From a virus (Duplodnaviria; Heunggongvirae; Uroviricota; Caudoviricetes), in the IMG/VR virus record IMGVR_UViG_2724679538_000001: DNA of 14,452 nt. The stretch is one strand, 5' to 3'. The translations under genes were made by a program, and so were the position numbers. Below the pieces are notes generated by a model, which saw only the letters and a program-made list of their open reading frames with translations, made no database searches and was not told the origin of the DNA. The number at the start of each line of letters is the position of its first letter. Position 1 is the stretch's first letter. Positions 8,129 to 14,452 of the stretch are shown here, in pieces.

Positions 8129-8734
8129 TTACACTGGTGTGTTCAGCAAATCGTTAACGGCATCAGATGCAGGGTTACCTGCAGCCAGCGGTGCCGGTGC
8201 CCCCTGCATCAGACGATCCAGCGCAGTGTCACTGCGCGCCTGTGCACTCTGTGGTGCTGCGGCCAGAATGCGGCGTGCCGTTTCCACGGTCATACCGGGG
8301 GTTTCTGCCAGCACGCGTGCCTGTTCTTCGCGTCCGTGGGCCTCCTCACAATTGAGGATCCCCATGATGCGGCTGTTTTCTGCCGCAACCGCTGCGGTGA
8401 TCTGCGCGTTCACGTCCGGCTGCGCCGCGCTGGCGTTTTCGCCCTCCGTCGCTGACACCACATCAGTAACATCAGCCTGCGAAGCAGTGGCTGAAACAGT
8501 TGTTGATTGAGTCTCTTTGGTCATTCGCCCTCCTGAGAGTCGGGATTTACGTGCATCCAGTGCCTCACGCATAACGGTGATCGCATCGGTGCTGTTAACA
8601 AGTTCATCAGCCAGTCCGGCATCAATGGCCTCCTGACCGCTGTACACTGCAGCCTCGGTATCCAGAACAGCCTGCACGGACAGGCCGGTATATGCCGATA
8701 CCTTCTGCGCAAACATCTGGCGGGTTGCATCCAT
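8129..8734 (-). CDS. Nu3: Scaffolding protein Nu3 (201 aa), an in-frame internal start within the C-terminal third of C
   Basis: An in-frame ATG at 8734..8732 (MDATRQMFAQKVSAY...) lies at the position equivalent to the lambda nu3 start (606 nt to the shared stop). Assignment rests on established lambda annotation and collinearity, not on a strong local RBS. Confidence 0.65.
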   Translation of the reverse strand: MDATRQMFAQKVSAYTGLSVQAVLDTEAAVYSGQEAIDAGLADELVNSTDAITVMREALDARKSRLSGGRMTKETQSTTVSATASQADVTDVVSATEGENASAAQPDVNAQITAAVAAENSRIMGILNCEEAHGREEQARVLAETPGMTVETARRILAAAPQSAQARSDTALDRLMQGAPAPLAAGNPASDAVNDLLNTPV

Positions 8735-9428
8735 CCGGGATTGCAGTGTTTCCCGGACGTCATCCGGAAGATGGCTGTAGGGGTTGCCATCCACCTTATG
8801 GCTGCCGCTGTAAATCAGCGTGATTTCCACGCCCTGTTTCTCCAGCGCAGCACCGTAATTACTGTGAGCCATCATGACGCCGATGGAGCCTGTCCGGGCG
8901 GTCTGTGTGACCAGACGCCGGGAGGCGGCACTGGCAAGCAGCTGACCTGCACTACAGTTCATGTCGTTGGCCAGCGCCCATACCGGTTTTATGTCACGCA
9001 CACGGGCGATGATGTCAGCGCAATCAAATGCCCCCGCCACCATCCCGCCTGGCGTGTCCATATCGAGCAGAATGCCGTCCACCATCGGATCGCTGGCAGC
9101 CTGTTGCAGACGGGCGATAATGCCGTTGTAACCGGTCATCCCCGAATACGGCTGCAGCGCCCGCGTCCGGCTGACCAGCGTGCCGGACACCGGCAGCACG
9201 GCGATGCCATTCATGACCTGATAACTGCGGGCCTGTCGTGGCCCGTCATCATCACCGGATAACGCCAGCGTCGCGGGTGACTCTCCGGCAGTCAGGCTGT
9301 CACCTGACACCGCATCCGTCAGGCGGCTTATCCCAATCTGGCCTGCAAGCGCACAAAAGAAAACCCGCGCATAGGCGGGTTCAAGCATCAGCGGCTCATT
9401 AAAGGCCATGCTGGCAATATGCGGGAGA

Positions 9429-9448
<20 letters not shown>
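8129..9448 (-). CDS. C: Prohead protease and scaffold protein C (439 aa), GTG start overlapping the B 3' end
   Basis: The track ORF 8129..9583 (484 aa) is an artefactual 5' extension. The lambda-equivalent initiator is the GTG at 9448..9446, preceded by AGGAGGAGAA, giving VTAELRNLPHIASMAFNEPLMLEPAYARVFF... of 439 aa. It overlaps the B stop (9429) by 20 nt, as in lambda. Confidence 0.88.
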
Positions 9449-13129
<3,681 letters not shown>

Positions 13130-13155
<26 letters not shown>

Positions 13156-13675
13156 TCAGCAACCCCGGTATCAGTTCATCCAGCGCGGCTGCTTTGTTCA
13201 TGGCTTTGATGATATCCCGTTTCAGGAAATCAACATGTCGGTTTTCCAGTTCCGGAAAACGCCGCTGTACCGAGAGAGGGATCCCGTCAAGAATACTGGC
13301 AATTTCACCTGCGATCCGTGACAGCACGAAAGTACAGAATGCGGTTTCCACCACTTCTGCGGAGTCTCTGGCATTCTTCAGCTCCTGGGCGTCAGCCTGC
13401 GCACGCGTAAGTCGATGGCGTTCGTACTCAATAGTCCCAGGCTGGAGATCTGCCTCGCTGGCAGCCCTGTAATCCTCAACCTCTTTACGGAGTTTTTCAT
13501 TTTCGATATCAGCTTCCCTCTGCGCATACCACTGAATTGCCATGGCGGTATCAAATACAGATTCAACGCCCTTACCACCTCCGGAGACGCAAGGGAGTCC
13601 CTGAGACTGCCAGCGTTCAATCGTTCGCGGATCCACGTTGAAAATTTCGGCAAGTTTCTTTTTATTAACCTTCAT
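13130..13675 (-). CDS. Nu1: Terminase small subunit Nu1 (181 aa); the N-terminal DNA-binding domain diverges from lambda while the C-terminal two-thirds are lambda-like
   Basis: ORF 13130..13675 (-), 181 aa. Residues from about 75 onward ([60 protein letters not shown]...) match lambda Nu1 as recalled. Residues 1 to about 70 ([41 protein letters not shown]...) differ at many positions from lambda (MEVNKKQLADIFGASIRTIQNWQEQGMPVLRGGGKGNEVLY...). Confidence 0.92.
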
Positions 13676-13699: not shown

Positions 13700-13811
13700 G
13701 GTCCGACATGAAAGTGCCCGAAAATGACTTTTTTAGGCGTTTTCATGTCGGACCTTTACGGATTCGATATTAGAAAAAACAAATAGTTATATTCGAGAAG
13801 TACCGACATGA
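13700..13811 (-). repeat. Three copies of a CCGACATG(A) motif in cosB: a 14-bp perfect inverted-repeat pair (13700..13713 and 13741..13754) plus a third copy at 13803..13811. Candidate small-terminase binding (R) sites
   Basis: ggtccgacatgaaa at 13700..13713 and its exact reverse complement tttcatgtcggacc at 13741..13754, separated by 27 bp. ccgacatga recurs at 13803..13811. All lie between cosN and the Nu1 start, where lambda carries R3-I1-R2-R1. Confidence 0.5.
13777..13789 (-). promoter_or_regulatory. Possible IHF-like site (aaacaaatagtta, one mismatch to WATCAANNNNTTR) after an A-tract, between the first and second R-like repeats
   Basis: AT-rich spacer 13755..13800 with an A6 tract and a near-consensus IHF core. 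Its position is analogous to lambda I1. This is a weak motif match only. Confidence 0.25.
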
Positions 13812-13851
13812 TTTTCCCCGGAAAATTTTCATAAATAGCGAAAACCCGCGA

Positions 13852-13863
13852 GGTCGCCGCCCC
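13852..13863 (-). other. cosN cohesive-end sequence (GGGCGGCGACCT on the minus strand) in joined, uncut form
   Basis: Plus-strand aggtcgccgccc at 13852..13863 is the exact reverse complement of the lambda 12-nt cohesive end. The flanking 30 or so bp on the Nu1 side match the lambda left end, apart from a 1-bp difference. Confidence 0.9.
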
Positions 13864-13898: not shown

Positions 13899-13915
13899 TG
13901 ATAATAATTATCATC
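13899..13915. repeat. Perfect 8-bp-arm palindrome atgataat-a-attatcat
   Basis: Read directly from the sequence; it sits in the AT-rich DNA between cosQ and the small plus-strand ORF. Function unknown; a protein-binding site is possible. Confidence 0.4.
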
Positions 13916-14061
13916 TACATGTCACAACGTGCATCTACGCCATCAAACCACGTCAAATAATCAATTATGACGCAGGTATCGTATTAATTGATCTGCATCA
14001 ACTTAACGTAAAAACAACTTCAGACAATACAAATCAGCGACACTGAATACAGGGCAACCTC

Positions 14062-14295
14062 ATGTCAACGAAGAACAGAACCCGCAGAACAACAACCCGC
14101 AACATCCGCTTTCCTAACCAAATGATTGAACAAATTAACATCGCTCTTGTTCAAAAAGGGTCCGGGAATTTCTCAGCCTGGGTCATTGAAGCCTGCCGCC
14201 GGAGACTGTGCTCAGAAAAAAGAGTTTCTCCTGAAGCAAACAAAGAAAAGAGTGTCATTACTGAATTGCTCAGAAAACAGGTCAGACCAGATTGA
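14062..14295 (+). CDS. Hypothetical small basic protein (77 aa) with an Arc/Mnt-like ribbon-helix-helix signature
   Basis: ATG at 14062 with AGGG 7 nt upstream. It is the only substantial ORF in this AT-rich segment. The stretch NIRFPNQMIEQINIALVQKGSGNFSAWVIEACRRR parallels Arc (NLRWPREVLDLVRKVAEENGRSVNSEIYQRVMESF): a beta-strand with Arg/aromatic/Pro, helix A, a Gly turn, then helix B. The N-terminus is Arg/Thr-rich. Coding status is not proven. Confidence 0.4.
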   Translation: MSTKNRTRRTTTRNIRFPNQMIEQINIALVQKGSGNFSAWVIEACRRRLCSEKRVSPEANKEKSVITELLRKQVRPD

Positions 14296-14339
14296 AGCAA
14301 TTTAGATAATCGTGCAGACTACGCCCTGATGAATCCCCT

Positions 14340-14361
14340 AATGATTTTTATCAAAATCATT
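14340..14361. repeat. Imperfect palindrome aatgatttt-tatc-aaaatcatt downstream of the small ORF
   Basis: 9-bp arms with a 4-bp spacer, read directly from the sequence. It is AT-only, so unlikely to be an intrinsic terminator; an operator-like site is possible. Confidence 0.3.
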
Positions 14362-14452
14362 AAGTTAAGGTAGATACACATCTTGTCATATGATCAAATG
14401 GTTTCGCCAAAAATCAATAATCAGACAACAAAATGTGCGAACTCGATATTTG

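Follow-up and report, generated by a model that had tools for sequence, protein, structure and literature searches.

The cos-adjacent gene ynfO of a lambdoid phage encodes a DUF3950 protein with a predicted ribbon-helix-helix-like fold

Beside the cos site of a lambdoid phage, a short plus-strand reading frame points against the late genes. Is it a gene, and could its product be a DNA-binding regulator that had escaped notice? The window (the whole 14,452-nucleotide stretch of phage DNA that was analysed) is the left end of a lambdoid genome read in reverse, and its features are collected in Table 1. The original prediction had described a 77-aa plus-strand ORF about 200 bp from cosN in AT-rich DNA, and all three properties were found: given the position of cosN, the ATG lies 200 bp from it, and the GC content around the ORF is 0.41-0.44, as against 0.52-0.63 in the late genes. 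The 12-mer at cosN is that of the lambda cohesive end. The ORF had also been said to run opposite to the late operon; since the Nu1-like and gpA-like genes indeed lie on the minus strand, it is antisense to late transcription. Homologues of the Nu1-like gene are annotated as 'terminase small subunit' in L001 and as nohA in K-12. Between the Nu1 start and cosN lie a 25-nt inverted repeat (GGTCCGACATGAAAGTGCCCGAAAA and its complement, 13700-13754) and a third copy of GTACCGACATGA at about 13801-13826, which are probably this phage's cosB terminase-binding repeats, unlike lambda's.

Table 1. Genes and sequence elements located in the window
Feature	Position	Strand	Basis or remark
gpA-like gene	11230-13155	minus	ORF list
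Nu1-like small terminase subunit	13130-13675	minus	ORF list; divergent neighbour across cos
cosN cohesive-end 12-mer, AGGTCGCCGCCC	13851-13862	unstranded	Exact match; reverse complement of GGGCGGCGACCT
Fur box, TGATAAT-A-ATTATCA, perfect 7-1-7	13899-13913	unstranded	1 match vs 0.01 expected; ~36 bp from cosN
Imperfect palindrome, ATCAATTATGACG-N7-CGTATTAATTGAT	13960-13992	unstranded	13-nt arms, 85% complementary
ynfO ortholog, 77 aa + stop codon, ATG start	14062..14295	plus	DUF3950, YlcI/YnfO family
Conserved core, residues 13-50, predicted RHH protomer	14098..14211	plus	AF2, conservation, Foldseek
Variable C-terminal tail, residues 51-77, low-confidence helix	14212..14292	plus	pLDDT 56-76
PdhR-box-like 17-mer, AACAGGTCAGACCAGAT	14276-14292	unstranded	Exact match; ends directly before ynfO stop
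IS10-family (ISVsa5-like) element end	14326..14452	plus	Plasmid matches, collinearity break, Rfam
Second palindrome, AATGATTTT-tatc-AAAATCATT	14340-14361	unstranded	Within IS10-family end
RNA-OUT	14371-14440	minus	Rfam 97.3 bits, gathering score 41
Transposase start	about 14434		Within IS10-family end

The product of the ORF scored 72.8 bits against Pfam DUF3950 (PF13132; curated cut-off 25, E=2e-20) and 35.3 bits against NCBIfam NF041551, 'YlcI/YnfO family protein' (cut-off 30), passing both curated cut-offs for the YlcI/YnfO family, and it matched PHROG 949, a family without known function, at E=6e-33. It shares 74 of 77 residues (96%) with E. coli K-12 YnfO (b4533, Qin prophage), and this high identity is coupled with a conserved neighbourhood, as expected of orthologs. 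RefSeq names the gene across E. coli as 'ynfO' or 'ylcI: YlcI/YnfO family protein'. Among 5426 complete E. coli genomes, 3786 contain the ORF's DNA, 2169 of them at full length, with up to 12 copies per genome; 153 phage records have it as well. The ORF is the already catalogued gene ynfO, from a family of unknown function, and hence no new gene; the suggestion that it might be an 'unrecognised' regulator falls in that respect. ynfO is counted among the uncharacterised 'y-ome' genes (PMC11551758), and a literature search found no functional study of it.

Lambda itself carries an intact 64-aa YlcI-type ORF (48109..48303, complement), whose product has 95% identity in its first 55 residues. The lambda RefSeq record (NC_001416) has no annotation between 47945 and 48502, in line with the original prediction, which knew of no annotated lambda gene at this position. 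The DLP12 copy of the lambda version is annotated ylcI (b4589), and ybcW-ylcI is listed as a convergent excludon in RNA-seq, implying transcription of the DLP12 ylcI (PMC12288877). In prophages of the lambda and Qin types, ynfO/ylcI is the first gene beyond cos, antisense to the late operon, and is followed, directly or past an opposite-strand gene, by a DUF1398 gene (ydfO, ybcV, lambda p78); in K-12 Qin, ydfO (plus strand) comes after ynfO. The lambda RefSeq labels lambdap78 (47042-47575), which is 79% identical to the DUF1398 protein YdfO, a 'head protein'. A scan of contigs (L051-L083) also revealed lambda DNA in assemblies of unrelated taxa (Streptomyces, Cohnella, Pedobacter, Shewanella and others), as whole-genome contigs of ~48.5 kb and pieces of ~3.5 kb, a pattern that fits sequencing-control DNA; such contamination, with its frameshifted reads, inflates the apparent diversity of DUF3950 'representatives'.

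Annotation of a short ORF beside cos does not by itself make it functional, and the frame might be held open merely by packaging-related conservation of cos-adjacent DNA. From cos to about codon 49 the DNA of lambda, Qin and the window hardly differs, and it then diverges abruptly at a mosaic joint. Near-identity beside cos is what such an explanation would lead one to expect; it also means that close relatives yield no dN/dS signal. A genome-wide profile scan, seeded with an alignment subset, gave divergent homologs of 33-57% identity in Pectobacterium, Serratia, Xenorhabdus, Klebsiella, Proteus, Pantoea, Tatumella and other genera. The ORF is intact at 36 divergent loci, with a conserved ATG and a stop 49-95 codons on, and SD-like motifs precede it in most of them. 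Over these loci dN/dS was 0.24 in the sense frame and above 1.2 in four other frames, and variability by codon position in the sense frame rose from the second to the first and steeply to the third, the order expected of coding DNA. As judged from these codon patterns, the divergent DUF3950 homologs are under purifying selection. That homologs far from any cos site are selected in this way, and that curated Pfam and NCBIfam models exist for the family, makes a non-functional ORF hardly credible.

One antisense frame gave a dN/dS of 0.29, yet it is interrupted by stops in 7 of the 36 loci; the low value is an expected artefact of coinciding third codon positions. Over-extended minus-strand ORFs mask the plus-strand DUF3950 gene in the Pasteurella 'phage' Pmp7 (L091, 4435-5109) and at two other loci (L033, 4634-5608; L015, 4451-5278), the one in Pmp7 being annotated 'transcriptional repressor'. 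Only the C-terminal ~60 residues of the long antisense ORFs of satellites, outside the overlap, match a family (phrog_1743), and the plus-strand product of the same region matches DUF3950 and PHROG 949. An antisense gene as the true coding unit was rejected on these grounds. Taken together, the antisense stops, the order of codon positions and the DUF3950 and PHROG 949 matches identify the plus strand as the coding strand: ynfO is a real, selected and widely annotated gene, in the orientation and position given in Table 1.

What might its product do? Structure prediction, proposed at the outset, was carried out with AlphaFold2 (AF2) on inputs of 19 and of 85 aligned sequences. Both models have residues 14-18 (N-I-R-F-P) extended, a helix at 19-32, a G-S-G-N turn and a second helix at 37-53/54, with core pLDDT values of 71-85; DSSP assigns no strand, as expected of a lone protomer. 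The mosaic joint with lambda-type genes, located by DNA alignment to lambda, falls at about codon 49-50. Near-invariant in the 85 sequences are K13, I15, R16, F17, P18, I25, N36, F37, S38, W40, V41, A44, C45 and L49, and in an RHH reading I15 and F17 would point towards the core and R16 towards DNA, with N-F-S beginning helix 2. The best 50 Foldseek matches in the PDB are almost all ribbon-helix-helix (RHH) proteins, none of them significant; among these matches are StnY/CopG 9kkd (probability 0.80), NikR, the MazE9 N-domain, Arc (1par, 1bdv, 1b28), ParD2, CopA, HicB, MatP, VapB and CdbA.

Searches by sequence profile were less generous. No RHH family in Pfam matched the ORF product at E<=10, and RHH_6 was matched by one of 19 family members, at E=0.092. 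Against PDB sequences, the 19-sequence profile found a sole match, the CopG-family RHH protein 9kkd, in the right register but at E=0.51; with the 85-sequence profile this match was gone and noise alone was returned, as it was for the single protein. HicB-like PHROG matches were weak, and in a second large profile search aimed at RHH families the best 120 matches listed were all DUF3950. Using hhalign, TRNIRFPNQMIEQINIALVQK aligned on Arc's QFNLRWPREVLDLVRKVAEEN (NIRFP on NLRWP) with a probability of 1.8%; the Arc sequence used was checked against 1arq. Neither Pfam, the PDB profiles nor hhalign, then, places the family in the RHH superfamily, and the profile search against RHH, Arc and CopG models that had been proposed gave no significant match.

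YnfO might instead be a small helical protein with no RHH-type DNA binding, such as a protein-protein adaptor, in which case the Foldseek list would reflect a generic helix-turn-helix hairpin. We consider this unlikely: a generic hairpin should not draw so uniform a set of RHH matches; the basic arm, the alternating I15/F17 core and R16, the proline cap and the N-F-S at the start of helix 2 form an RHH pattern; and the genomic positions of the family suggest a regulator. Most likely, as far as the models can indicate, the conserved N-terminal part of about 50 residues folds as an RHH protomer. It is at the level of predicted fold, then, that the idea of an Arc-like RHH protein finds its support, in the AF2 topology and the RHH-dominated Foldseek list; no Foldseek or RHH profile match was significant.

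The palindromes flanking the ORF had been put forward as sites that the protein might bind. Both exist, and both have other owners. The first is a Fur box whose half-sites are invariant in Qin, lambda (at 48452-48466, by offset from cos) and EC21Z-144. The homologous K-12 sites, in Qin and DLP12, are reported as strong Fur sites (nohA -233, 22.3 bits; nohB -133, 25.3 bits); in vivo selection recovered that of nohA, and a gel shift bore it out (Chen et al. 2007, PMC2189734). A promoter-like element on the minus strand (GTGACA-16-TATCAT, 13925->13898) overlaps the Fur box and is aimed across cos at Nu1/A. Together the two raise the question of whether transcription into prophage terminase genes is iron-regulated.

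The second palindrome belongs to an inserted IS10-family end, which starts 31 bp past the ynfO stop with a terminal 23-mer at 14326-14348; the window is collinear with Qin and EC21Z-144 up to about 14326. These last 127 bases match IS copies in 3049 plasmid records, in which the features are annotated 'ISVsa5 family transposase', and the element separates ynfO from the place where relatives carry the DUF1398 gene ydfO. As one palindrome is a Fur site and the other part of an IS, neither is evidence for a YnfO operator. The only native candidate, on sequence grounds, is the imperfect palindrome at 13960-13992, which lies 70-102 bp upstream of the ynfO ATG and does not vary among the window, Qin, lambda and EC21Z-144. 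At the 3' end of the gene, the PdhR-box-like 17-mer is identical to a K-12 sequence, lying between ynfO and ydfO, that is reported to be a site for PdhR in gSELEX (PMC7660256). Strict and relaxed promoter scans found no convincing sigma-70 plus-strand promoter for ynfO.

In the Stx phage BP-4795 the homolog is the only antisense gene, flanked by the lysis genes on one side and an unrelated HNH-TerS-TerL packaging module on the other, and has no DUF1398 gene beside it; a lone antisense DUF3950 gene thus stands just upstream of two unrelated packaging modules, lambda-type and Stx-type. P4-like/PICI-type satellites of Enterobacterales and Pasteurella carry DUF3950 proteins of 33-45% identity that keep the conserved core, and here too the gene is the only one on its strand, antisense to the surrounding operon. 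The satellite genes differ in their location, which is away from cos, with alpA/antA on one side and the primase operon on the other, and in having no DUF1398 neighbour; they are divergent from a small phrog_1743 'repressor'-like gene. A gene alone on its strand, opposite a phrog_1743 regulator and a primase operon, has a regulator-like context. Strong inverted repeats occur ~100 bp upstream of the satellite DUF3950 ATG, a distance similar to that of the 13960-13992 palindrome: TGTTTAAACA-N14-TGTTTAAACA, with ten-bp arms, at about -99 (L024, L029, L031), and GTGTTTAAAT-N16-ATTTAAACAC, also with ten-bp arms, at about -100 in Klebsiella loci L087 and L089. Placed in the divergent intergenic region, these repeats are candidate operators. 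At the same two Klebsiella loci (8565-12204) portal, gpW and GpA terminase genes adjoin the satellite integrase, an arrangement that looks like the helper-embedded PICI configuration (PMC10111431).

These contexts bear on two further explanations. If YnfO were a DNA-binding factor of packaging, acting at or near cos and not on transcription, its constant place in phages beside cos or the packaging module, across two unrelated terminase types, would be accounted for, as would three protein clusters that join DUF3950 to a weak Terminase_2-like segment (a recurrent 129-aa architecture, seen at L086, 4714-5103, and in proteins P0177, P0224 and P0227, with the segment at the C-terminus). Yet ynfO is antisense to the very late transcript that makes terminase, the satellite homologs sit at a replication operon away from packaging genes, and the fusions occupy the usual satellite place, between int/alpA and primase, their Terminase_2 match being marked as weak. 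Lambda packaging is known to be reconstituted without such a factor, and a cos-associated role seems improbable.

The original prediction had also allowed for an antitoxin-like protein. The gene that an RHH antitoxin would be paired with is the downstream DUF1398 gene (ydfO/ybcV) as toxin, and the conserved, adjacent and co-transcribed toxin gene of a type II system was not found across the homologs. Adjacency is confined to Qin-type loci: an opposite-strand gene intervenes in lambda and DLP12, an IS lies between ynfO and the ydfO position in the window, and Stx phages and satellites lack the DUF1398 neighbour. PADLOC matched neither YnfO nor the DUF1398 protein, and overexpression of YdfO is reported, in a passage of PMC4077768 that cites the work, to raise resistance to oxidative stress, not to be toxic. 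A toxin-antitoxin pair, for which neither a conserved partner nor a defence or TA profile match was found, was rejected as very improbable.

The reading that we favour, giving it a little over an even chance, is that YnfO is a small RHH-type DNA-binding regulator, expressed from the prophage and made in the lysogenic or quiescent state. Two YnfO chains would pair their N-terminal strands (R13-N-I-R-F-P18) to place a beta-ribbon in the major groove of DNA, and the N-terminus of helix 2 (N36-F-S38) would anchor the dimer on the phosphate backbone. This small dimer would regulate transcription, probably as a repressor or autoregulator. With an orientation opposed to late transcription, ynfO would be expressed from its own promoter, mainly in the lysogen. 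We infer its dimerisation, DNA binding, regulatory role and timing of expression from genomic placement and predicted fold, which together point to a small DNA-binding regulator made while the surrounding operon is silent. The interpretation first offered for this ORF thus keeps its orientation and an RHH-like predicted fold, and loses novelty, flanking operators and the antitoxin.

A bolder generalisation, quite unlikely to hold, is that DUF3950 proteins are lysogeny-state RHH repressors or transcriptional insulators, encoded in antisense orientation at the head of operons whose silence must be maintained: packaging in prophages, replication in satellites. The lambdoid target would then be the packaging/terminase module, leaky expression of which would let terminase cut chromosomal cos, and the satellite proteins could be the global repressor of Gram-negative PICIs. 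That repressor has been called 'unclear' (PMC6092414).

As a discovery the locus carries little weight, since ynfO/ylcI is an already listed DUF3950 gene, found in the majority of E. coli genomes. What is gained is a testable, model-based prediction, that of an RHH DNA binder, for a 'y-ome' family without assigned function. The recurrence of a lone antisense gene ahead of operons for packaging (phages) or replication (satellites) suggests a regulatory role, and the reference lambda record can be seen to omit a conserved YlcI ortholog and to label its DUF1398 neighbour a 'head protein'.

Among known systems, YnfO resembles P22 Arc and Mnt and the CopG-type RHH repressors in its small size, basic N-terminal arm, two predicted helices and glycine-containing turn, and its N-x-R-aromatic-P strand motif aligns to Arc's NLRWP. 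It differs from them in that neither sequence nor profile comparison gave a significant match; Arc and Mnt recover one another but not the DUF3950 family. The context of P22 immI is likewise different, for nothing like arc-ant surrounds ynfO, whose neighbours in the window are cos/Nu1 and an IS. The lambda ORF is much closer: its upstream DNA is nearly identical to that of the window as far as cos, although the two tails bear no relation from about codon 49 on; lambda-type proteins share only aa 1-55. Closest of all is K-12 ynfO, which differs in three substitutions in the protein (E30V, S57P, D65V) and in retaining the immediate downstream ydfO junction that an IS10-family element replaces in the window. 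K-12 and the window have in common the synteny of the nohA/Nu1 homolog (minus strand), cos and ynfO (plus strand), the Fur box located 156 bp upstream of the gene, and the PdhR box at its 3' end.
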